A program made the position numbers and the translations under genes. A DNA stretch of 11,871 nt from Chthonomonadales bacterium (GTDB lineage Bacteria > Armatimonadota > Chthonomonadetes > Chthonomonadales > Chthonomonadaceae), in contig JBBQPO010000193.1 of assembly GCA_038217285.1 (NCBI GenBank), positions 1 to 11,871 on the forward strand. The letters run 5' to 3'. The notes under the pieces are model-generated. The model searched no databases and was not told where the DNA came from. It worked only from the letters and a program-made list of their open reading frames with translations. Position 1 is the first letter of the stretch, and every line of letters begins with the position of its first letter. Positions 1 to 11,747 of this stretch are shown here, in pieces.

Positions 1-692
1 GACCAGATCTCCCGCGTCTCCGGAAAATGCACGATGGACTTCTCTGGATTGCACGGCCAGGGCTCGTCCTTCTGTCCGGGGGCGAGCGGAGCGCCGAGCG
101 TGTGCATGCACGGCACGACGCGCTTCTCGCCGGTGTCTATCTCCGCGAAGACCGGCTGGCCGATGCGGGCCATGATGCGCATACTGACGACGACATAGGG
201 CGAATCGGTCAGTTGCACACCGATCTGCGACATGGGCGAACCGATCGGCCCCATGCTGAACGGCAGCACATACATCGTCCGACCGCGCATCGAGCCTTCG
301 AACAGCTTCTTCAGCTTACGTCGCATCTTGAACGGCTCTTCCCAGTGGTTGGTAGGTCCGGCCGCCTCCTTCGAGAGCGAGCAGATAAACGTCCGATCTT
401 CCACCCGCGCGACGTCGTTGGCGTCGGAGCGCGCGTAGTAACAGCCCGGCCACAACGCCTCATTGAGCTTGAGGAAAGTGCCGCCTTCGACCATCTGCGC
501 GCAGAGAGCATCGTACTCTTCCTGAGAGCCGTCCACCCAATGGATCGTGGCAGGCTGCGTGAGCCGCGCCATCTTATCGACCCACTTCAGAAGGTGGACA
601 TTTTTACTCAGCGGGGCCGAAAGGGCACGACCACTCCAGGCCGCGTCTGCGTCATGCGCGGGAATCGCCTCGTTGGGTTTGGGTGTTTCCAT
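1..692 (-). CDS. pckG: Phosphoenolpyruvate carboxykinase (GTP), 5' part; continues past the left edge of the window
   Basis: Hand translation from ATG at 692 is open to the window edge: [64 protein letters not shown]...[20 protein letters not shown]...AGPTNHW...[44 protein letters not shown]...[20 protein letters not shown]. These are characteristic GTP-PEPCK N-terminal motifs. No Shine-Dalgarno is visible before the ATG. Confidence 0.95.
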
Positions 693-701
693 GTTCTATA
701 T
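630..701. repeat. Direct repeat A, left copy (first 21 codons of pckG plus 9 nt upstream)
   Basis: 72 bp matching 5437-5508 at 70/72 positions (mismatches 644/5451 and 693/5500), aligned by hand. Confidence 0.97.
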
Positions 702-904
702 CGCAGGGGGCCGGCGCTTCAGGGCGATCCGCGAAGGGAGACTCCTCACGCGAAATTGTTCTTTCACGACAGGGTCTTACAATTCAACCCCACTGTATTC
801 CTTTCGGTCTATTATTCTGACCTCGCTTGTCGGCTTACTCGGTCGTTCGAAGCACAACCCCTGAGAAGCCCGGATGCTTCGCAGGAGGCACAGGACAATA
901 GCAG
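702..904 (-). other. 203-bp segment found only in the left repeat copy; predicted pckG 5' leader and candidate structured RNA or small insertion
   Basis: Lies between repeat A and repeat B, which are directly adjacent in the right copy (5508/5509). Sits between a promoter and the pckG ATG. Hand-found stems: 711-724 with 859-873, 730-752, 769-796, 806-822. Confidence 0.5.
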
Positions 905-931
905 TATAGACGAATCCCTCGTGCAAGTCTA
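903..931 (-). promoter_or_regulatory. Putative sigma70 promoter of pckG
   Basis: Minus strand reads TAGACT (931-926), a 17-nt spacer, then TATACT (908-903). Confidence 0.6.
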
Positions 932-941
932 CGGTAATGAC
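905..941. repeat. Direct repeat B, left copy (promoter plus last codons and stop of the FAD oxidoreductase)
   Basis: 37 bp matching 5509-5545 at 33/37 positions (mismatches at 916, 932, 935, 938). Confidence 0.93.
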
Positions 942-997
942 ATACCTGTTCAGACTTACTCGAGTGATATTACGGCCATCACATGCCTCCCCTGAAG

Positions 998-1460
998 ATG
1001 ACCCAGCAACTGATCCAGCCCTTCCTGGCGGGTGTAGAGGGCGTCATCTCCGCCCTCCAGACCCTGTACGACAAGTGCCTGGAGCGCTCGAGGCGGACGG
1101 CAAGACAGACCCTTACCTGGCGTACATTCGGCAGCAGATCAGCAACTGGCACATCCTCTGGGCGGAATGGCATCTGCTGTCAAACTGTTGCGCCGAAGCC
1201 TAAGTCCCCATGCTGTTGGTGGTTCCTGCGGACCAGAGACCTCTGAGCAATGACGACGATTACGCCATCCTTTCTACCTTTCGGAACCCCCTACTCGTTC
1301 TCGCCTCGGCGCTCATCAAACACCCCTATCACTCCCCGCGACCTGTTTGGACATCTTGTGGGGTCTTACATCGCCGGTACAGGAGACGAAATAGGCCCTG
1401 TATGCGCCGAAACGGTGTGTGCGTTCTGCGTCCGCGTTCGGTGCGACCTAGGACGCTCCG
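998..1460 (+). pseudogene. Probable decayed hypothetical gene
   Basis: Protein-like blocks with GC-rich codons in successive frames: MTQQLIQPFLAGVEGVISALQTLYDKCL, frameshift near 1080, ALEADGKTDPYLAYIRQQISNWHILWAEW..., TAA at 1201-1203, VPMLLVVPADQRPLSNDDDYAILSTFRNPLLVLASALIK, frameshift near 1320, TPITPRDLFGHLVGSYIAG. No family recognised. Confidence 0.3.
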
Positions 1461-1461
1461 G

Positions 1462-1626
1462 GATACCATTCCGGCTTGACGGCAGCCGTCGGGCGCGCTC
1501 GCCACGCTGGAGCGCCTGGCCGCAATCCCCGAAGAAGAGCTGTGGCTGCAAAATCAGCGCAGTGCTCACACGCGCTGAGCCTACGAAGAAGATGTCCGTT
1601 ACTTCATGCAGATCGCAGCAGGCATT
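1462..1626 (+). pseudogene. N-terminal remnant of a tyrosine recombinase (integrase/XerD-like, core-binding SAM-like region)
   Basis: Frame 1 reads DTIPA*RQPSGALATLERLAAIPEEELWLQNQRSAHTR*AYEEDVRYFMQIAAGI. This fits the W-L-x4-S-x-x-T-R-R-A-Y-x-x-D-V-x-x-F helix pattern of integrase N-terminal domains (recognised from memory). In-frame TGA codons at 1477-1479 and 1576-1578. The catalytic domain is absent. Confidence 0.7.
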
Positions 1627-1658
1627 ATGAGAATATTAGCTCTTGGGGCTATTTGCAC

Positions 1659-4106
1659 TCAGATTTCAATTTCGATCTCAACTGGGGTCGCGGTTGGTGT
1701 AGTAATCAGAGACGCAACTTGTGTGTAAATATCGACATTGATTGGTGGAGTTTCAATGGAGACAATCAGGGCATAGCGGGCAGGCCTATTCCATCTTCCT
1801 ATTGTGTGTCTTTCACGCCACCATCCTGCCGATGGCCTGATAGCGATGAAATTTGAACTCGCCAAGTCGGCTGCAGTCCCTGTCCATATATCCGAATGGA
1901 TCGAGCCAACATCCCTTTGTTGGCCTAATAGCCAGTGTGAGGATGGAGAAGAGGTGTCAGGTGAACCCTCATCTTCGGACCTTGCCTGTGCATTGACCCG
2001 TTTATGAAAATCTTCCTTACTTTCGCTGGGTTCATTCAAATCGAAACGAAGACCATGTGACGCATAACGGTATCTATCTTTCCAACCTTTTTCGCCTGGG
2101 CCAGGCTCTATGAAATAGGAAAGCGTGATTCTAAGTTGAACTTCTAAGCCACCGAGTTGCTGTAATTCTTCATGCGGCCACGGTAGTTCATAAAAGTGGA
2201 GTTCATTCGTTCCGTAACCGCTGGTGGTTTCCTTCTTTTTGAATGGCTGAAGCTGTGCCTCGCTGACGAGGGTTAGCCGGTTTCTAAGGCAATGCAGTGC
2301 TATGTCAAGCTGTGGAACGCCATACCCACAGCTTCGCAGTAGATTCCTATATCCACCTTTCCCAGAGCTTGGTGGAACCTGTGCCTTCATCGCTTCTGTC
2401 CATCTCGCGGAATGTACAAGCAGCCCACGAACTGTTTCCGGCCATAGATTGGGATACTCGGCATAGATATTGGCGGCGAGATGAGATGCTTGCGCAGTCG
2501 CTGCACTCGTCTGTCCAAACAAAGTGAAATGTTTATTGGTGTATTTGTGGTGCGTTGATAGAACGAGCAAATCGTCTATTTCTTCTGCAAGACCACCGGG
2601 GGTTGTGGCGATATTGCCACCTTCCAAAACAATTTCGGGCTTAATGGGCCATAAGCGTGATGACCAACTGATGGATGTCGTACTGGTTGGAGAGAGGGTA
2701 CCTGCCTGCGCAATGGGATTGTATCCTACCAACTGTGGATTCGATATTTGAATTTTATTCGTATAAGCCCCGATGGTTAAAGCGTTCCATGACTGGGCAG
2801 GATCATATACATCGTTTGTGGAGTTACTTATCGGGTAATTTGCCCACTCAAGCGGATCGATAATATTTCCAGCACTGACAAGAATAAGACGGCGAGTCTC
2901 ATCATCGTATCCGCTAGCAAGTTTGTCAAGCATTGCAGACCAAGATGTTGGTCTGCCTTGGTCACGTGTGTCATCCGCCGCGACCGCCATGCAGATAACA
3001 CGCCTACGATAGGGTGCCTGAACCTCAGCCCGGAAAATTCCCTGGGCTGTCATATCACCCCAAAGTTCTATGGGATTACTTTGTCCAGATGGCGGCAGAA
3101 TCTTCGCTGACTCAAGCCGATGGCGTACATTTATCGTGGTGTTGCTGTCTACAGCTTCCTGAACATCGCCGAATATAGAGATACCTGCCATTGACGTCCC
3201 GTGCCCAAAACGATGGTGATCTTCTTTCCCCCATTCCGCCTTGACTGTGTGCAAGTCATCGGTGGATAGGACTGGCGATATCATGGGATGCCCTGAGTTG
3301 ATTCCATTATCCAAGATGCAGACGGAGACATTTGATGGGTCATCGAATGTAACCCGCTTCATTAGGTCTTCTACCCATTCCGCCTGTTCTTGGTTATCAA
3401 CCTCATAAAAATAAGAACACGTCTCGCGTGCCGCTCGCAATTCTGCCAACTGGTCCGATACAAGCAACAGACGGAGTAATTGCTCTTGATTAGCATTAAG
3501 CAGAAGAACCGATCGCTCAGGGAATATCAATACAGACGACGTCTCACGTTCGTGAATGCCGAGGCCTGAAACAACCGTGCGGAATTTTGTTATATCTTTA
3601 GGGGAATCTGACGACAGCCAGACCTCAACCCAGCGCGGTTCCCGTTGCGGTATTTTTGTTTCATCATCCGTCCAGAAAGATTTCAGAACAGCCACACGAA
3701 TATCTTCTATGCTCGTAACCAGTAACTGATTCCGTGGTTTAACTTTTGCAGGATCAAGGCTTACAGTGTTTTTGTCCCTGTAGGCTTCTATTTTCTTGAG
3801 GAAATGTCTGCTCTTTTCTTTCGGTACATATACCGTAGCCAATTGGATCTCCCGTCCCTCCTCGGAACGAGTTCGTACATTTAGTAGGCGAATATCAGCG
3901 GGCAGATATTCAAGGCTCTGTACTTTTACGTCATATCCGGCCGCGCATTCAAATTCCAAGTAAACCCCCTTCCTAGTGGCGTAGGAGGTCGCTTGAATAT
4001 TTTGGCTGGCATTCCAAGCAGCATCAAACCGTGCTATTAGCTGGTCTGCGTGTGCCACGCGGTCGCGGAGCGGAATAGGCGGAATGCTATCAGGATCTCT
4101 TCCCAT
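1659..4106 (-). CDS. ietS: S8 family subtilisin-like serine protease, IetS/Y4bN-like; frame stays open upstream to 4181, likely start ATC at 4178
   Basis: Catalytic Asp (VCILDNG), His (GHGTSMAG), oxyanion Asn (VSAGN) and Ser (GQTSAATA). Also the KPEIVLEGGN, WPETVRGLLVHSARWT and GYGVP motifs typical of AAA-ATPase-associated subtilases. No signal peptide evident. Lies directly downstream of the AAA ATPase. Confidence 0.9.
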   Translation of the reverse strand: MGRDPDSIPPIPLRDRVAHADQLIARFDAAWNASQNIQATSYATRKGVYLEFECAAGYDVKVQSLEYLPADIRLLNVRTRSEEGREIQLATVYVPKEKSRHFLKKIEAYRDKNTVSLDPAKVKPRNQLLVTSIEDIRVAVLKSFWTDDETKIPQREPRWVEVWLSSDSPKDITKFRTVVSGLGIHERETSSVLIFPERSVLLLNANQEQLLRLLLVSDQLAELRAARETCSYFYEVDNQEQAEWVEDLMKRVTFDDPSNVSVCILDNGINSGHPMISPVLSTDDLHTVKAEWGKEDHHRFGHGTSMAGISIFGDVQEAVDSNTTINVRHRLESAKILPPSGQSNPIELWGDMTAQGIFRAEVQAPYRRRVICMAVAADDTRDQGRPTSWSAMLDKLASGYDDETRRLILVSAGNIIDPLEWANYPISNSTNDVYDPAQSWNALTIGAYTNKIQISNPQLVGYNPIAQAGTLSPTSTTSISWSSRLWPIKPEIVLEGGNIATTPGGLAEEIDDLLVLSTHHKYTNKHFTLFGQTSAATAQASHLAANIYAEYPNLWPETVRGLLVHSARWTEAMKAQVPPSSGKGGYRNLLRSCGYGVPQLDIALHCLRNRLTLVSEAQLQPFKKKETTSGYGTNELHFYELPWPHEELQQLGGLEVQLRITLSYFIEPGPGEKGWKDRYRYASHGLRFDLNEPSESKEDFHKRVNAQARSEDEGSPDTSSPSSHWLLGQQRDVGSIHSDIWTGTAADLASSNFIAIRPSAGWWRERHTIGRWNRPARYALIVSIETPPINVDIYTQVASLITTPTATPVEIEIEI

Positions 4107-4181
4107 GCGAGGGCGCGTGTAGCTGATCCCCTGAGCTTTATCGACAAGGAAAAGGATTGGGAGATTGTTTGCTGCGATGAG

Positions 4182-5147
4182 TTATTGTCCCCCATTCGTA
4201 TGTTTCCGCTCGGCAAGTGCGGCTTCCAATCTTGATAAACTAATGGCTTTAATGTCCTGAAGGATCGCTTCTTTCAAAGCATCTTGGCATGCCTGAACAA
4301 TTTCGGCACTACTCAATCCCTCGCTAGCCGATACGGCTTCTTTCCATTTGAACCGTACTCCGATAAACGTCCCTATTGTGTTGGCAATCAGTCGATGTCT
4401 GTCTTCTTCTTGCGGATATTCATAAATGAGCAAGTCATCGAATCTGCGAAAGAGCGCTTTATCCAGTAGACCTGGGCTATTTGTCGCAGCAACGATCAGA
4501 CTATCGGATGAGTCCTGCTCGATAAACTGCAGCAGCGATGTGAGTACACGGCGCATTTCACCAACATCATTGCCTCGCTCGCGTCCACCACCAAGCGCGT
4601 CAAATTCGTCGAAGAGATAGACTCCTTCCCGCTCCCGGATCATATCAAACATTTGCCGTAAGCGGGCACCGGTTTCTCCCATGAATTTGGTAATCAGGCG
4701 ATCCGCCTGCACTGTATAGAGCGGTAGGCGTAACTCACTGGCTAGCACCTTCGCAGTCAGTGTTTTTCCTGTTCCTGGGGGGCCGTTCAGAAGAATCTTG
4801 CGACGATGTTGAAGGCCATGTTGCTTCAGTTTATCGCGTTGACGAAACTCGTAAAGGATGCGCTCGATACGGGCTATGAGAGGTTGAGGCAGGACGAGTG
4901 AGGCAAGAGAAACGCCAGGTAAGTCGATACGCACTAGGCTTTCAAGCTCTGGAGAAAACTTACCGATAGACGCTTTTTTTCGGTCACTGCGGGTCTTGTC
5001 CACCAAGTCACGAATTTCGTGTGCGAGTGCCCCATGTCCTTGGTGGGCTTCGTGAGCAGCTACCTGTAGTGCCAGGGTAAAGACACGTTCCTCGTCGTCA
5101 CTAAAGAGTGACCGGATTAACGCTTTGATTTGCTCTGCAGTCGCCAT
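4182..5147 (-). CDS. ietA: AAA+ ATPase, IetA/Y4kL-like (321 aa)
   Basis: Walker A GPPGTGKT, Walker B YLFDEFD, sensor-1 AATN, Arg finger ALFRRFD. Start moved from 5189 to ATG 5147 (MATAEQIKALIRS), which has the SD GGAG 6 nt upstream. Confidence 0.92.
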   Translation of the reverse strand: MATAEQIKALIRSLFSDDEERVFTLALQVAAHEAHQGHGALAHEIRDLVDKTRSDRKKASIGKFSPELESLVRIDLPGVSLASLVLPQPLIARIERILYEFRQRDKLKQHGLQHRRKILLNGPPGTGKTLTAKVLASELRLPLYTVQADRLITKFMGETGARLRQMFDMIREREGVYLFDEFDALGGGRERGNDVGEMRRVLTSLLQFIEQDSSDSLIVAATNSPGLLDKALFRRFDDLLIYEYPQEEDRHRLIANTIGTFIGVRFKWKEAVSASEGLSSAEIVQACQDALKEAILQDIKAISLSRLEAALAERKHTNGGQ

Positions 5148-5226
5148 ATATATCTCCGAGGGAGGCCATATAATCCAAAATGACAGCATTCTGGCTTAAG
5201 AACACTGCATGCCCTCTATGTTGTAA

Positions 5227-5499
5227 CTATAGTTCGTTACCTATATTCGGAAATCCTCCGCTCGTTATTATCGGACGCATTGTTTGGCAGATCTCCACTT
5301 GTCTTTGTTGTTGACGACTGTGCCCAAAATTCGACTTGGGCGGCCCTTGTCCAAGTTGGTTCCTCTGCCCCATTCTGAAAGTTCGCGCTCTACTTCGTGC
5401 CGAGATCGTCTTTGTTGCCGACGAGATTGCTGCGATACCACTCCAGGCCGAGTCTGCGTCATGCGCGGGAATCGCCTCGTTGGGTTTGGGTGTTTCCAT
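5227..5499 (-). pseudogene. Truncated pckG stub (21 codons, 5499-5437) fused in frame to 69 codons of island sequence
   Basis: [21 protein letters not shown] matches the PckG N-terminus except A17S, then runs into unrelated sequence from 5436. Confidence 0.85.
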
Positions 5500-5545
5500 A
5501 TTCTATATTATAGACGAATGCCTCGTGCAAGTCTATGGCAAGGAC
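5437..5545. repeat. Direct repeats A+B, right copy (contiguous 109 bp)
   Basis: 5437-5508 matches 630-701 and 5509-5545 matches 905-941. Confidence 0.97.
5507..5535 (-). promoter_or_regulatory. Putative sigma70 promoter, leaderless geometry, pointing into the pckG stub and ietAS
   Basis: TAGACT (5535-5530, overlapping the oxidoreductase TAG stop), a 17-nt spacer, perfect TATAAT (5512-5507), 7 nt, then ATG at 5499. Confidence 0.65.
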
Positions 5546-8394
5546 CGTGTATTTCGTGTCAGCAGAGCGTCCGCAAGCAGTTCGGCCATGTGTCTGGCAT
5601 GGACTGGGGAGAGGTGGTCGATCTGATGGCGACAGCTTGTGCCGGATGCGACGACAATGGTTCCTGGGGGCTGGTCCTGGATTTTTGTCACGAGGGGTTC
5701 CGCGACCTTCAGGGAGAGATCGTATTTCGACTCCAGCGCGCCAAAGGCTCCGGCCATGCCGCAGCATCCCGTCTCCAGTAAGGTGACGTCGCGACCGGGC
5801 AGACGTCGGACGAGCCGGGTCATAAAAGCAGGATCTATCAGAGATTTGGCATGACAGTGGGCGTGGATAACGATATTGGCCGGTTCTGCGCGAAACCGTA
5901 GGGCCTCGGGTTCGCGGGACAGCAACTCTTCGATGAACTGTTCAAATAGAAAACAGCGGCCTGCCGTTTCCTGCGCTCCGTCCAGTTTCAACTCACGATA
6001 GTCCTCCGCGAACATGGAGTGACAGGAGGGCTCCAGAAACAGAATCGGAGTGTCCGCGTTGGCAAGAAGGGAGAGATTGTGACGACCGAGCGTTGCGGCA
6101 GCGTCGAGGTTGCCCTGGCTGAACGCGGGCCGACCGCAGCAACGTCGATTGAGCGGCAGCACGACTTCAAAGCCCGCAGCTTCGAGCACTGTGACCGCCG
6201 CAATGCCGATGTTCGGCTCATGGTAGCGCACGAAGGTGTCGTCCCACAGAATGACGCGTCCACGGGTGGGAGGAGCGGGACGGGAACGCCGGGCGAACCA
6301 GCGGTCGAAGCGCGTGGTGGCATAGAGCGGCAGCGGGCGTCTGGCGGAGAGGCCGAGCGTCTGCTCCATCAGCCGCCGCAGCCAGGTCCACTGCAGCGTC
6401 TTGTTGGCGAGTCCGGGGGCGAGGCATCCCAGTCGTCCCAGGAGATCGACCGAGCTTAGCAACCGCTCGCGCAGAGGCATGCCGTCGCGCCTGTGACGGG
6501 CGTGCAGCAACTCCGCCTTGAGCAGCGCGAGATTGACGTTGGAGGGACATTCGGTGGTGCAGGCCTTACAGGCGAGGCAGTTGCTCAGGGCGGCATCGAG
6601 TTCGGAGGATCGCAGCGCGTCGCCATCCGGGTGACCACGGTGTTCCAGGGCAGCCCGAATAGTGTTGGCGCGACCACGCGTGGACATTATCTCGTCGCCG
6701 GTGGCGAGGAAGGTCGGGCACATCGTGGGGGTGTCCTTCCGGCAGCCGCCGCAGCCATTGCACTGTTCCAGGTTGCGGACGAAGGAGCCGTCTCGGGCCG
6801 CGAAAGCCAGCACCGGTTCGAACGGCAGTTCCAGGCGATAGCCGCCGCCCATGCGAAGATTCGTATCGATCCGGTAGCGGCCGTCGGGGATGACCTTGCC
6901 GGGATTGAACAGACTGTTCGGATCGAAGACCGCCTTGATCTCTCGCGACAACGCCATCAGCTCTGGGCCGAGGTGCGCGGGGACATACTCCGTGCGGGCG
7001 ATACCCACGCCATGTTCCCCTGCCAGGGAGCCTTTGAACTGCAGCACCAGCGCGGACACCTCGTCGCTGATCTGGCGGAATTTCTTCACATCCTCGGCGT
7101 CGTGCAGATCGAGGACGGGGCGGACATGCAGCAGCCCGGAGGCGGCATGGCCGTAAAACGAGCCGTGCAGTCCGAGCGGTTTCATCAGCGACTGAAGCCC
7201 TGCGACATAAGCGGGCAACTGCTCCGGGCAGACGGCGGTGTCCTCGATACAGGTGACCGGCTTGGCGTCGCCTGCGCAGCCGGTGAGCAGAGAAAGCCCG
7301 GCTTTACGCATGGCCCAAACGAACGCTATCTCGGCGCTGTTCTTGAGGATGGTAGTGCGCAGCCCGAGTCTTTTCTGCGCCAGCGCCGCGAGTCGCTCCG
7401 GCACATCTTCGTCAAAAAACTCCACGACCAGGAGCGATTCGCACGGCTTCTCATCCAGTTCCAGCAGGTCGCGCGCGGCCTTGAAAGGACGCTGCCCGCG
7501 CGTCTGGTCCAATAGAATGCGGTCCACATGCTCGATGGCTGCCGGTTTCAGATCGAGCAGCGCCACAGTCGCCTGCATGGCCTCCGTCACCGAAGCGAAA
7601 AAGAGGATGCCCACTCCCCTTGCCTTCGGCAGAGGAACGATCTTGAGCTCCGCCGAAACGATCGCCGCGAGCGTACCCTCACTGCCGGCAAAGAGATGGC
7701 TGAGGTTGTCGGGGTGGCGCAGAAATCGGTCCAGGCCGTAGCCGGGATAGCGCTTTAACAGTCCCGCCGGAAGCTGCCGCTCGATTGCGGCGGCGCGGTC
7801 ATGGACACGTGCGGAAATCGACCGTTGCTGCGCTGCCAGCGAGTCGTGCCGCGCACCGGTATTTGCGATTTGGCCGTCTGCAAGGGCGACCTCCAGCGAA
7901 AGCACATGGTCCGCCGTGACGCCGTAGACAGGAACGTGTGAGCCGGACGAGTTGTTGGCGATCATGCCGCCGAGGGTGGCGCGTGAACTGGTGGCGACGT
8001 CCGGCCCGAAACAGAGGCCATGCGGCTTGAGAAAAGCGTTGAGCTGATCCAGTACGACGCCTGCGCCGACCTGCACGGTCCGCCGCTCCAGATCCAGGCC
8101 GGTGATCCGGCGATTGTGCCGTGAGAAGTCGATCACCAGGCCTGCACCGATGGCCCCGCCGACGAGGCCGGTGCCGGCGCCACGGGGCGTCACAGGGAGT
8201 TCCGCCTCCCCAGCGGCGTTAATGATCGCAGATGCCTGGGCTGCACTACGTGGAAAAGCGACTGCTGCCGGTTCGATCTGATAGATGGACGCGTCGGTGG
8301 CGTAGAGCTGTCGTGTCAGATTATCGAAGGCGACATCACAGTCCGCCTGCTCCAGAAGTGACTTTTGTTTGGAAGAGAGCATCCGTCCGTTCAC
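5533..8394 (-). CDS. FAD-binding and Fe-S-binding oxidoreductase (GlcD/GlcF-type fusion, YdiJ-like D-2-hydroxyacid dehydrogenase family)
   Basis: FAD_binding_4 motifs PRGAGTGLVGGA, GGMIANNSSG, GSEGTL. FAD-oxidase_C motifs GHAASGLLHVRP, GEHGVG, FNPGKV. 4Fe-4S motifs CNGCGGC..MCP and CLACKACTTECP, plus two CCG motifs. The GTG start overlaps the upstream TGA (GTGA); alternative ATG at 8382. Substrate cannot be assigned. Confidence 0.92.
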   Translation of the reverse strand: MNGRMLSSKQKSLLEQADCDVAFDNLTRQLYATDASIYQIEPAAVAFPRSAAQASAIINAAGEAELPVTPRGAGTGLVGGAIGAGLVIDFSRHNRRITGLDLERRTVQVGAGVVLDQLNAFLKPHGLCFGPDVATSSRATLGGMIANNSSGSHVPVYGVTADHVLSLEVALADGQIANTGARHDSLAAQQRSISARVHDRAAAIERQLPAGLLKRYPGYGLDRFLRHPDNLSHLFAGSEGTLAAIVSAELKIVPLPKARGVGILFFASVTEAMQATVALLDLKPAAIEHVDRILLDQTRGQRPFKAARDLLELDEKPCESLLVVEFFDEDVPERLAALAQKRLGLRTTILKNSAEIAFVWAMRKAGLSLLTGCAGDAKPVTCIEDTAVCPEQLPAYVAGLQSLMKPLGLHGSFYGHAASGLLHVRPVLDLHDAEDVKKFRQISDEVSALVLQFKGSLAGEHGVGIARTEYVPAHLGPELMALSREIKAVFDPNSLFNPGKVIPDGRYRIDTNLRMGGGYRLELPFEPVLAFAARDGSFVRNLEQCNGCGGCRKDTPTMCPTFLATGDEIMSTRGRANTIRAALEHRGHPDGDALRSSELDAALSNCLACKACTTECPSNVNLALLKAELLHARHRRDGMPLRERLLSSVDLLGRLGCLAPGLANKTLQWTWLRRLMEQTLGLSARRPLPLYATTRFDRWFARRSRPAPPTRGRVILWDDTFVRYHEPNIGIAAVTVLEAAGFEVVLPLNRRCCGRPAFSQGNLDAAATLGRHNLSLLANADTPILFLEPSCHSMFAEDYRELKLDGAQETAGRCFLFEQFIEELLSREPEALRFRAEPANIVIHAHCHAKSLIDPAFMTRLVRRLPGRDVTLLETGCCGMAGAFGALESKYDLSLKVAEPLVTKIQDQPPGTIVVASGTSCRHQIDHLSPVHARHMAELLADALLTRNTRSLP

Positions 8395-11300
8395 CGATCC
8401 AGAGGCGAGACGGTCACCGTAATCTCGGTCCCGTGCCCCGTTGGACTGGAGATTGTGAACGTTCCTCCAAGGCTATCGGCGCGTTCCTTCATGCCGGTGA
8501 GGCCGAGGCCATCGCGCGGAGCGTCCTGGTCGAAGCCCTGCCCGTCGTCCCGGATGCTCAGCCGAACCTCGGAAGCGCTATAAGCGATTTCGAGGAGAAC
8601 GCGACTCACGTGACCGTGCCGGAGCGCGTTGGTGAGAGCCTCCTGACCGATACGGTAGAGCTCGCTCTCCGTCCTGCCAGGCAGGGCATAGGGCGATCCT
8701 TCGACGATGCAGTGGACTTTGATTCCGTTCGAGGTCTGCTGCGCGAGATGTTCAAGGGCGGAAACCAGACCACGTTCCAGTAGGGGAGATCGCAGCGCCT
8801 GAATGGAACGTCTGGCCTCCGTCACGCTTTCCATCGCGATCTCACGGGAGGCGGCAATACGCTCGCTCGCCTGGTCCGGATGCTCAGGCAGCGCGAGCTC
8901 CGCGGCCTCCATCTGCAGCTTTATCGCCGTGAAACCCTGGGCCAGCGTGTCGTGCAGCTCGCGGGCCATGCGGTTGCGTTCGGCCAGGACGGCAACCTCC
9001 TGTTCCAGGCCGATGCGTACGGTTTCAGAATGCTTCCGGGCTGTGATATCGACAAAGGTCAGCACGACGCCATCGATACGGTCGTCCACGGTACGATACG
9101 GCAGCATACGACCCAGAAACCAGACGCCGTTGCTGCTCACTTCACGCTCGATGGGCCTGAGATCGTACAGGACACGCTCCGCATCCGCCGTCAGGGCGGA
9201 GTAGTTCAGTTTGTGCGTGATGTCTGAGAGCGGACGCCCGATGTCCGTTGAAATGATGTTGAACAGCTCCTGAACGCGTAGCGTGAATCGCTTGATACGC
9301 AGTTGACGGTCGAGGAAAATCGTGCCGATCTCTGTGGAAGCCATCAAGTTCTGCAGATCGCTGTTGACCCGGCCGAGTTGATCGACACTGCTCTTGAGTT
9401 CCTGGTTGACGGTGGTCAGCTCTTCGTTGATCGACTGCAGTTCTTCTTTGCTGGTTTCCAACTCCTCGGTGGCCGAGCGCAGCTCTTCATTCATCGCCTG
9501 CAGCTCCTCGTTCGAAGCCTTGAGCTCCTCGGTCGAGGCTTCGTACTGTTCGGCTGTCGCGCTCAGTTCTGTCTGGAGGTCCTGTATCTCTTCCTCAAGA
9601 TCCCGTGCGACCTGTTCCGGAACGCGAGCAACAGCGATGACGGTCTCTTCCGTTTCCGCGAAGGGTTTGAAAAGGACCAACAGAAAGCCGTGACTCGCAT
9701 GCGTATCGGGTACTGGCCGCACATGGATGTCCACCAGATGGGTGACGCCTTCGCGTTCCATCGCGACGCCAGTCGCGGTGACGGCCGCGCCGCTCCGAGA
9801 CGCCCGGAAGAGAGCGGCGCGCAGCTCGGCCTGGAGAGCAGGATGCACGACCTTCAGCAGATTCATCGACGGCTCGCCGCCCGAGAACTGCAGGAACTGT
9901 CCGGCGTGCTCGGAGAGATGCACGATGTCGTAGGCCGGATTGATGAGGACCGAAGGGGGCGCCACCTGCTCCAGAAGCAGAAGGTGCAGCTCGCCGTACT
10001 GCATCGGCCGCATATCGGAAGTGGGCGGGCCGGCGACAGCCGTCAACTCCGTTGGTATGCTGACGGGCGGGCGCAGGCGTGGCATCACCGGCGGGCTTGA
10101 AGTGCGCTGAAGAGTGGACGGGAAAGGCAGGGGCGGAAGATTCCATCCGGAACGGGTGACAGCGCGGCGGGCGAACAGTCGATGCCGCTTGTCAAGCGGT
10201 ACAAAGAGTATATTGGCGTCGTCTACGCTCTCGGATCCGCCCAGAAAGAGAAGCCCGCCGGGCCGCAGCGCATAGTGGAAAATATCGAAGACACGCTCCT
10301 GAGCGTCGCGCTTGAGATAGATCAACAGGTTGCGGCAGGTGATCAGATCCAGGCGGGAAAAGGGAGGGTTCTTCAGCAGATTATGTGGCGAGAACAGGAC
10401 AGTTTCCCGCACCTCTTTCCGGATACGATAGCGGCCCTGATCCTTCTGGAAAAAGCGGCGGAGACGTTCTGCAGAGACATCCGCTTCTATCGTCGGAGGA
10501 TAGAGTCCGGCGCGGGCGAAGCGGATGACATCCTCGTCTATGTCGGTGGCGAACACCTGAATCGAGGGCGGCGATGCGAGACGGTTCGCATGTTCGTACA
10601 ACATCATCGCGAGCGAGTAAGCCTCCTCGCCCGTAGCGCAGCCTGCAACCCAGACGCGTACCTGATCGCCCGGCTCCTTGCCGGCAAACAGTTGAGGCAC
10701 ATGGCTTTCGAGGGCCGCGAAGGCTTCGCTGTCCCGAAAAAAGTTCGTGACGCTGATGAGCAGGTCGTGCAGCAGGGCGGGTATCTCTGCCGTATGGGTG
10801 CGCAGAAAATCGAGGTAGGCTGGAATAGTCTCCAGCAGATTGACCTGGAGGCGGCGCGCTACTCGGCGCAGGATGGTCGCTCGCTTGTAGTGCGAAAAGT
10901 CATGCCCAGTCTGCGCATGAAGGTACCTCATAACGTCCAGCAGAGCAGATTCGTCGGTGGTACTGGCCTCTAACTGGACTGTCAAGGGCCCCCCGGAATT
11001 CTTGTCGTTGGCTGCCGCATCCTCCCCCGTTTCCGGGTCGTCGGGCGGTACGTGCATCCGCATTTCGTTCTGCATGAATCGCATCAGGCGGGATGGCATT
11101 TCCGCGACCGGCAGCACCCAGTCCACCATACCGGTGCCGATGGCCGAGCGCGGCATACCGTCGTACTCAGCCTCCGTCGGATCTTGAACGATGGTGACGC
11201 CGCCCTGCTCCTTCACATGCTTGATTCCGATCGCCCCGTCCGAATCAGTACCGGACAGAATGATGCAGACCGCACGCGGGCCGAAGCCGACCGAGAGCAT

Positions 11301-11690
11301 ACGGAAAAATAGGTCAATCGCGACGCGTATTCCTGGCCGCTGCTGCGGCTCCACCAGGCACAATAGCCCGTCCTGAACCGAAAGGTGCCTGTTCGGGGGA
11401 ATGACGTAGACGTGGTTGGCTTCGACCGGGACCGACTCCGTCACCTGCGTCACCGGCATTCGGGTGCGCTGCTGCAGAATCTGGGCAAGATTGCTTTCAT
11501 AGTCCGGCGATAGGTGCATTACTACCACGAACGCCATCCCGCTGTCAGCCGGCATCTGCTCGAAAAAGGCTTGAAGCGGTTTGATACCGCCCGCCGAGGC
11601 GCCGATGCCGACCACCGGGAAAATATTTCGTGCCTGCTCGGCCGGTACAGCATCGAGGCGGTCGTCGGAAACTACGGAGTCGATTATCAT
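8391..11690 (-). CDS. CheB methylesterase / CheR methyltransferase / PAS / coiled-coil / HisKA_3-HATPase hybrid sensor kinase
   Basis: CheB triad motifs GIGASAGG, VMHL, SGTDSDG. CheR motifs VTNFFRD, RVWVAGCATGEEAYS, DLITCRNLLIY. PAS-like regions and a Glu-rich coiled coil. H-box ERNRMARELHDTLAQ, N-box QEALTNALRHG, G-boxes DDGQGF and GLGLTGMKERA. ATG 11690 has the SD AAGGA; the ORF is open to 11741. Confidence 0.92.
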   Translation of the reverse strand: MIIDSVVSDDRLDAVPAEQARNIFPVVGIGASAGGIKPLQAFFEQMPADSGMAFVVVMHLSPDYESNLAQILQQRTRMPVTQVTESVPVEANHVYVIPPNRHLSVQDGLLCLVEPQQRPGIRVAIDLFFRMLSVGFGPRAVCIILSGTDSDGAIGIKHVKEQGGVTIVQDPTEAEYDGMPRSAIGTGMVDWVLPVAEMPSRLMRFMQNEMRMHVPPDDPETGEDAAANDKNSGGPLTVQLEASTTDESALLDVMRYLHAQTGHDFSHYKRATILRRVARRLQVNLLETIPAYLDFLRTHTAEIPALLHDLLISVTNFFRDSEAFAALESHVPQLFAGKEPGDQVRVWVAGCATGEEAYSLAMMLYEHANRLASPPSIQVFATDIDEDVIRFARAGLYPPTIEADVSAERLRRFFQKDQGRYRIRKEVRETVLFSPHNLLKNPPFSRLDLITCRNLLIYLKRDAQERVFDIFHYALRPGGLLFLGGSESVDDANILFVPLDKRHRLFARRAVTRSGWNLPPLPFPSTLQRTSSPPVMPRLRPPVSIPTELTAVAGPPTSDMRPMQYGELHLLLLEQVAPPSVLINPAYDIVHLSEHAGQFLQFSGGEPSMNLLKVVHPALQAELRAALFRASRSGAAVTATGVAMEREGVTHLVDIHVRPVPDTHASHGFLLVLFKPFAETEETVIAVARVPEQVARDLEEEIQDLQTELSATAEQYEASTEELKASNEELQAMNEELRSATEELETSKEELQSINEELTTVNQELKSSVDQLGRVNSDLQNLMASTEIGTIFLDRQLRIKRFTLRVQELFNIISTDIGRPLSDITHKLNYSALTADAERVLYDLRPIEREVSSNGVWFLGRMLPYRTVDDRIDGVVLTFVDITARKHSETVRIGLEQEVAVLAERNRMARELHDTLAQGFTAIKLQMEAAELALPEHPDQASERIAASREIAMESVTEARRSIQALRSPLLERGLVSALEHLAQQTSNGIKVHCIVEGSPYALPGRTESELYRIGQEALTNALRHGHVSRVLLEIAYSASEVRLSIRDDGQGFDQDAPRDGLGLTGMKERADSLGGTFTISSPTGHGTEITVTVSPLDR
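9376..9600 (-). repeat. Coding heptad (21-nt period) imperfect repeat forming the EEL coiled coil
   Basis: STEELKASNEELQAMNEELRSATEELETSKEELQSINEELTTVNQEL, the usual coiled coil of CheB/CheR fusion proteins. Confidence 0.8.
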
Positions 11691-11747
11691 TTGAGTGTCC
11701 TTCGCACGGTTCGCCGTTACGCGGTGCATCACTATTGACATTCAGTT

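Follow-up and report, generated by a model that had tools for sequence, protein, structure and literature searches.

A probable decayed integrative island carrying an IetA/IetS gene pair at the 5′ end of pckG in a Chthonomonadales metagenomic contig

The stretch of DNA described here (contig JBBQPO010000193.1 of a Chthonomonadales bacterium, hereafter the window) spans the full length of an 11,871-base metagenomic contig, in which pckG, the gene for a GTP-dependent phosphoenolpyruvate carboxykinase, is separated from an upstream oxidoreductase gene by an interval of about 4.8 kb that includes two large minus-strand open reading frames (ORFs). We conclude that the segment from about 942 to 5436, together with the direct repeats that flank it, is probably what remains, in decayed form, of a site-specific integrative island that entered the 5′ end of pckG, and that its cargo is an intact ietA-ietS gene pair. 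Further support comes from the lower G+C content of the interval, the identity of its cargo, the synonymous character of the differences in the duplicated oxidoreductase end, and the position within pckG at which the repeat stops. Other observations in favor are these: the start of pckG and the sequence immediately upstream of it are present twice, once at each end of the interval; the same two host genes are adjacent in a related genome; and a fragment of a tyrosine recombinase gene lies near the left repeat.

A repeat finder applied to the whole window matches 630–701 with 5437–5508 (72 nucleotides [nt], 97%) and 905–941 with 5509–5545 (37 nt, 89%), and when the two parts are joined the direct repeats are identical at 103 of 109 positions, with mismatches at 644, 693, 916, 932, 935 and 938 and exact identity blocks of 14, 48, 8, 11 and 15 bases, the 48-base block being 645–692. 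Because the next-best repeat in the 11,871-base window is at most 34 nt long at 74%, the 109-base similarity greatly exceeds what chance would give. The right copy (5437–5545) is contiguous and reads, in minus-strand order, through the Ser-Leu-Pro-stop end of the oxidoreductase gene (5544–5533), a 33-base spacer with a promoter-like site, the pckG ATG at 5499, and pckG codons 1–21. The left copy is in two parts, of which part A (630–701) contains pckG codons 1–21 and the nine bases 5′ of the ATG at 692, and part B (905–941) contains the promoter-like region and a copy of the last three oxidoreductase codons with their stop; the 203 bases between them (702–904) have no counterpart in the right copy. 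The repeat finder and the alignment thus confirm what the initial annotation had claimed, that the pckG promoter and the first 21 codons of the gene occur twice with 103 of 109 bases identical.

Downstream of the repeat the two copies part company, with the left copy continuing into genuine pckG and the right copy running into unrelated island sequence. In the latter, the stranded pckG codons 1–21 are fused to the island in a chimeric ORF of 90 codons that appears in the ORF list (5227–5499, minus strand), and its 90-residue product matches no Pfam, PADLOC or PHROGs family and has no plasmid match. The mismatch at 644 gives Ala17 in one copy and Ser17 in the other, leaving the duplicated pckG stretch identical at 20 of 21 residues. 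The boundary of the repeat falls between pckG codons 21 and 22, and an alignment of 12 PckG sequences shows that the first ∼20 residues are hypervariable and that the invariant body of the protein begins at Arg22. The initial annotation further held that the duplication keeps the gene intact, and this stands for codons 1–230, where the reading frame is open; no more of the gene is visible, as the contig ends inside pckG. We also note that the PckG tail in the window (METPKPNE...) is unlike that of its closest relatives (P0001 and the Chthonomonadaceae locus L001 described below, both MATLY...) and is nearer to the tails of more distant homologues, although this may carry no meaning, the tail being hypervariable in the family.

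Relatives were collected by a genome scan with the pckG fragment, from which the best 80 of 519 confirmed candidate stretches were kept as loci. The sole syntenic locus among these is L001, from a Chthonomonadaceae metagenome-assembled genome; the other 79 belong to other lineages and are without the oxidoreductase neighbour. In tblastn comparisons the oxidoreductase is found in three of the 80 loci, full length in L001 (80% amino acid identity) and partial in the other two (26–32%), the CheB-CheR kinase that lies next to it in the window is found in one (L001, 74%), and IetA and IetS are found in none of the 80. The oxidoreductase gene of L001 ends at 9831 and its pckG, whose product is 83% identical to that of the window, starts at 10001, with 169 bases and no gene between them. 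An empty oxidoreductase-pckG junction is therefore present in a relative that stands at 80–83% protein identity to the window. Searches of the 80 loci with 693–1700 and 5190–5440 gave only chance-level hits by tblastx and blastn. As a separate observation, a 23-base unit is present in three tandem copies (95% matches) at L001 9802–9869, spanning the oxidoreductase stop codon, and because of this tandem repeat it seems that the same junction is unstable in the relative too.

The differences between the two copies give some indication of where the left copy came from. Positions 932, 935 and 938 are spaced by three and are the wobble bases of the oxidoreductase Ser-Leu-Pro codons, and all three changes are synonymous (TCA TTA CCG versus TCC TTG CCA), even though the left copy of these codons lies outside any gene. 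By a calculation made post hoc, three random hits in nine bases would fall on exactly the three wobble positions once in 84. Because its three end differences are all synonymous wobble changes, the left copy fits import from a closely related genome rather than decay in place; it would have evolved there as a real gene end and then been captured as an element-borne attachment site. The proposal in the initial annotation that a circle brought in a diverged copy of the oxidoreductase-pckG junction is in this respect supported, since the oxidoreductase end differs at three synonymous third-codon positions only. The same differences argue against an event in place, that is, a local duplication of 109 bases or a very long target duplication, followed by drift and the gain or loss of 203 bases. 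While direct repeats immediately bordering the insert are what a target duplication would leave, such an origin is very improbable, because it would require a non-functional copy of the oxidoreductase end to have diverged at three successive synonymous wobble positions and nowhere else, and because a tyrosine recombinase remnant is present. Moreover, target duplications of ∼100 bases are not known as a feature of bacterial transposition.

The recombinase remnant is located ∼540 bases inside the left repeat, at 1480–1614 on the plus strand, and was assigned by homology. It comprises only the N-terminal SAM-like domain, with in-frame TGA codons at 1477–1479 and 1576–1578 and a possible ATG at 1402. 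In amino acid sequence it is 82–89% identical to residues ∼23–74 of P0388, P0123 and P0389 (344 residues, with PF00589 and PF02899), and a word-indexed search with the remnant returned five proteins, three of which carry both PF00589 and PF02899 (344, 248 and 332 residues) and are 79–82% identical. At E ≤ 0.001, a HMMER search of 1.84 billion representatives gave 146 proteins, almost all aligned to residues 135–190 of the frame-1 read-through translation (with X at the stops). Among the 25 of these hits that were scanned, 23 have Phage_int_SAM_1 (E ≤ 0.01; 16 score higher than the Pfam cutoff); in another the catalytic Phage_integrase domain is the sole match, and one has nothing. The Pfam Phage_int_SAM_1 match to the read-through itself is weak (E 0.0051; 17.5 bits, under the cutoff of 22.3), and comparison of the read-through with solved structures gave only chance homeobox matches at E above 0.5.

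When seven of the relatives were compared with the window by tblastn, only 1468–1644 was matched (E 1e-12 to 8e-24, with all other hits at E ≥ 0.013), and this search found no catalytic domain or other integrase piece elsewhere in the window. Alignment shows that the TGA at 1576 substitutes the invariant Arg of the TRRAY motif, and the similarity to recombinases stops near 1614–1644, where the G+C content (GC) drops and where the ietS stop codon (1659) sits. About 45 of roughly 340 recombinase codons survive. The recombinase remnant reported within the island by the initial annotation is thus real but small, confined to the plus strand of 1480–1614, and the rest of 942–1658 matches no family. 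A recombinase occupying all of 942–1658 was considered and set aside, as Pfam and NCBIfam searches with 14 stop-to-stop fragments (780–1853) yielded no recombinase at E up to 5; the remnant itself surfaced only through a codon-usage scan and read-through with X at the stops.

That scan, trained on the flanking genes, shows coding-like sequence on the plus strand in frame 2 at 961–1110 and in frame 1 at 1081–1320 and 1471–1620, interrupted by stop codons in frame at 1201, 1477 and 1576. The ∼440 bases from the left repeat to the possible recombinase start at 1402 are partly coding-like and have no homologue. A coding-like remnant extends over 983–1320 (plus strand, in frame 2 to ∼1100 and then in frame 1, with the stop at 1201), has a flank-like codon-usage score and periodicity of GC at third codon positions, and may represent a second decayed gene of the element, lying in the interval from the left repeat to the recombinase remnant. 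The region matches nothing in Pfam, NCBIfam or PHROGs, a tblastn comparison of 968–1243 with plasmids was negative, and 1063–1467 has no homologue among the 1.84 billion representatives. A motif present at 770 and 1359 was tried as an arm-type repeat and rejected, as it is not enriched (8 matches versus 6.4 expected in the window).

The initial annotation described the island as the product of a single crossover with a circle carrying a diverged copy of the junction. The IetAS matches, the recombinase remnant, the empty site and the character of the left copy all agree with this, and from the window a site-specific crossover and a homologous one cannot be told apart. The crossover may have been in part A or in part B: if it was in part A, within the pckG codons, the 203-base leader would be element-borne and the native spacer would be 33 bases; if it was in part B, a 236-base spacer would be native, a length nearer to that found in L001 (169 bases), and the compact version would have been carried by the element.

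A homologous origin would involve a RecA-dependent, Campbell-type single crossover with circular or linear DNA from a sister strain bearing both the junction and IetAS, with the recombinase remnant as a passenger. The 109 bases that the copies have in common, including the 48-base exact block, are consistent with such an exchange, as are the resemblance of the imported copy to the orthologous junction of a close relative and the fact that the recombinase is non-functional now. We nonetheless regard this origin as unlikely, because site-specific islands are normally arranged with a recombinase gene immediately within one of their repeats, because 72 plus 37 bases are short for efficient RecA-dependent integration, and because it leaves unexplained the origin of a circle with only the junction and the cargo.

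The structure could also have been created by assembly, if an empty chromosome and a separate molecule with a look-alike site had been merged through the 48–72 bases common to both. The window consists of just one short contig from a metagenome, and the repeat could mislead an assembly made with a short k; the exact identity blocks are short, however, both junctions continue through the repeats into unique sequence, and with no replication gene and a dead recombinase a free-living form of the element is unlikely. We consider this explanation improbable, somewhat more so than homologous integration, and note that even if it were true an element with a mimic of the pckG junction would exist.

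Site-specific integration, which we favor, would have proceeded as follows. A tyrosine recombinase, its gene located a little way in from the left end, would have joined an element-borne site, itself a copy of the junction acquired from a closely related host, to the chromosomal oxidoreductase-pckG junction. Insertion would have stranded the chromosomal promoter and pckG codons 1–21 beside the oxidoreductase gene as the right copy (5437–5545), and the body of pckG would have been joined to the promoter and 21 codons of the element as the left copy (630–941). Because the element would supply both promoter and codons, pckG stays open and keeps a putative promoter. The island is no longer self-mobile, since the recombinase gene is cut to ∼45 recognizable codons with an in-frame stop. 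Its cargo is the intact, lower-GC ietA-ietS operon, co-oriented with pckG; the chromosomal pckG promoter, stranded upstream of the operon, may contribute to its transcription.

Several points weigh against this interpretation. The homology, 109 bases spanning both sides of any crossover point, exceeds what a site-specific event needs and would permit RecA-dependent recombination, the window has no intact recombinase, and no arm-type repeats were found, the ends of the island sharing no 9-mer or longer. The wobble argument consists of three substitutions and was made post hoc. There is only one syntenic relative, a distant one (80–83% amino acid identity), and its intergenic region is not alignable with that of the left copy (73 of 300 shuffles score as well). 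Both island junctions rest on one short metagenomic contig, in which pckG can be followed no further than codon 230; the promoter-like sites do no more than match a consensus, the scan having given 5 sites versus 5.0 expected; and the 203-base segment of the left copy has no explanation.

This segment (702–904) is found in the left copy only, would form the 5′ leader of pckG, and is of undecided origin. It matches nothing in Rfam (E up to 1), a second copy is present neither in the window nor among the 80 pckG loci, there is no target duplication, and the 216-nt putative pckG leader folds no better than shuffled sequences (z −1.74). The 203-base difference falls within a −10-like hexamer, which reads TATA/AT in the right copy and TATA/CT in the left, the slash marking the point of difference. 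In the consensus scan the intact pckG is preceded by the promoter-like site TAGACT-17-TATACT (903–931, minus strand), and a second such site, TAGACT-17-TATAAT, is in the right copy (5507–5535, minus strand), where its −35 element overlaps the oxidoreductase stop codon and where it now faces into the island. This second site is the sole promoter-like site that the scan finds upstream of ietA on the minus strand. Were both sites genuine, pckG transcripts would have almost no leader in the right copy and one of ∼205 nt in the left.

A more novel reading would be a promoter swap, with the promoter and leader of the element taking over pckG and the chromosomal pckG promoter driving ietAS. We regard the swap as doubtful; were it true, a toxin-antitoxin or defence pair would be tied to the carbon status of the cell. 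A terminator-like hairpin is situated at 5183–5208 (minus strand; 10 base pairs, of which 3 are G-C, and then a T-run), between the stop codon of the chimeric ORF and the likely ietA start, and could reduce the transcription that reaches ietAS from the stranded pckG promoter.

The two large ORFs of the island lie in a region (1600–5400) with a GC of 0.44–0.52, as compared to 0.58–0.67 in the flanking genes; for the island as a whole the value is ∼48%, versus 60–66% in the flanks. The first, ietA (4182–5189, minus strand), is 335 codons in its longest form and encodes an AAA+ ATPase (Pfam AAA, 2e-29), and the second, ietS (1659–4106, minus strand), is intact and encodes an 815-residue S8 subtilase-type protease (Pfam Peptidase_S8, 6.5e-57). 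Both match the corresponding PADLOC models, IetA at 9.6e-72 (PDLC02196; residues 16–332 on profile positions 2–325 of 374) and IetS at 1.5e-38 (PDLC02198; residues 259–802 on profile positions 253–780 of 795, a match that extends beyond the protease core). The NCBIfam model IteA_antiphage also matches IetA (6.5e-61), with a score of 206.5 bits that is under its equivalog cutoff of 510 bits. In alignments with the founding pair of plasmid pTiC58, IetA is 48% identical to the ATPase from end to end, and IetS is 41% identical to the S8 peptidase over 821 aligned columns (residues 11 to 812). The assignment of the ATPase and protease as IetA and IetS, first made from the sequence alone, is thus upheld by the PADLOC models for both proteins and by full-length alignment.

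The motifs that align with pTiC58 are ILDNG/LLDSG, HGTS/HGTQ and TSAATA in the protease and GPPGTGKT and DEFDA in the ATPase, which in S8 and AAA+ proteins generally represent the catalytic Asp, His and Ser motifs and the Walker A and B motifs, respectively. Because Met15 of the longest ORF aligns with Met1 of the pTiC58 ATPase, translation of ietA probably starts there, at 5147. As in pTiC58, ietA is upstream of ietS on the same strand; the gap between the two genes is 75 bases in the window (4107–4181) versus 3 bases in the pTiC58 pair.

The IetS family is widespread, with at least 2,472 proteins at E ≤ 0.001 (8,000 scored), and the nearest IetS among the scored proteins is 65% identical. 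A search of plasmid DNA with 693–5545 gave matches confined to the AAA core of ietA (80 records, 60–80% identity), including plasmids of Agrobacterium, Rhizobium and Burkholderia, and a search of phage DNA with the same segment gave no match. As recounted in PMC13069673 (2026), ietAS was first found as a plasmid-stabilizing toxin-antitoxin pair in which the protease is the toxin and the ATPase the antitoxin, and the same text gives its anti-phage mechanism as unknown. Judged by sequence, the pair in the window would likewise be a protease toxin with an ATPase antitoxin, and would also be able to defend against phage.

The host-type genes recognized in the window are all on the minus strand, and neither a tRNA gene nor an Rfam match (E up to 1) was found in it. 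The pckG fragment (3–692, codons 1–230; Pfam PEPCK_N, 8.2e-80) is truncated by the end of the contig, and comparison with full-length PckG proteins shows no frameshift and a top identity of 91%. Its chromosomal neighbor across the island (5533–8394, minus strand) encodes a 953-residue FAD-linked oxidase/iron-sulfur oxidoreductase of YdiJ-like type, with the Pfam domains FAD_binding_4, FAD-oxidase_C, Fer4_8 and CCG; its NCBIfam YdiJ match (2.5e-158) is under the model cutoff. Beyond it is a gene (8391–11741, minus strand) for a 1,116-residue fusion of CheB methylesterase, CheR methyltransferase, PAS and histidine kinase (HisKA_3 and HATPase) domains. This is a single protein with an orthologue in L001, the 74% identical kinase already mentioned, and its ORF overlaps that of the oxidoreductase by 4 bases in the window (8391–8394). 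In L001 the two genes are instead separated by a luciferase-like monooxygenase and a FUSC-like membrane protein (4220–6637), both of which are missing in the window.

On this reading the island is an ordinary example of a known mode of insertion, the principle of which is already documented. PMC8409611 and PMC2791158 describe tyrosine-recombinase islands that insert in the 5′ ends of housekeeping genes and supply a new promoter and N-terminal codons, so that the gene stays expressed. The initial annotation considered it unusual for the promoter to be part of the duplication; this view does not hold, as such an arrangement is documented, in PMC8409611, for SXT at prfC and for the dusA islands. 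A limited full-text literature search for pckG as an attachment site returned no relevant title. What the locus adds is an attachment site, the start of pckG, for islands that replace promoter and N-terminus, a new host phylum for islands that enter the starts of housekeeping genes, and a sighting of IetAS as island cargo, outside the plasmid setting of its first description; it leaves knowledge of the IetAS mechanism unchanged. There is also a lesson for annotation, in that an orphan ORF with the start of a neighboring gene (5227–5499) and a 45-codon scrap of an integrase suffice to delimit a fossil island.

Three known systems provide the closest comparisons. The pTiC58 IetA/IetS pair has the same constitution, an AAA+ ATPase (∼330 residues) followed by an S8 protease (∼820 residues) in the same order and orientation, but is on a plasmid, whereas the pair in the window is chromosomal and in an uncultured, soil-type and Armatimonadota-like host. 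The dusA elements (IMEVchUSA3, for example) and the SXT/R391 integrative and conjugative elements at prfC are, in the literature cited above, similarly inserted in a housekeeping gene's 5′ end, and give that gene a promoter and an N-terminus that are new. The island described here differs from them in its target gene, pckG, and in being tiny (∼4.5 kb), without transfer or excision genes and with a dead recombinase; and its pckG duplication is identical at 20 of 21 residues, as compared to 61% identity over 35 residues for the dusA case. Finally, low-GC defence cargo, a pseudogenized integrase and flanking direct repeats are also seen in defence islands and decayed integrative elements that adjoin att-site remnants, from which the pckG island differs not in kind but in its host phylum and its attachment site, both of which are new.

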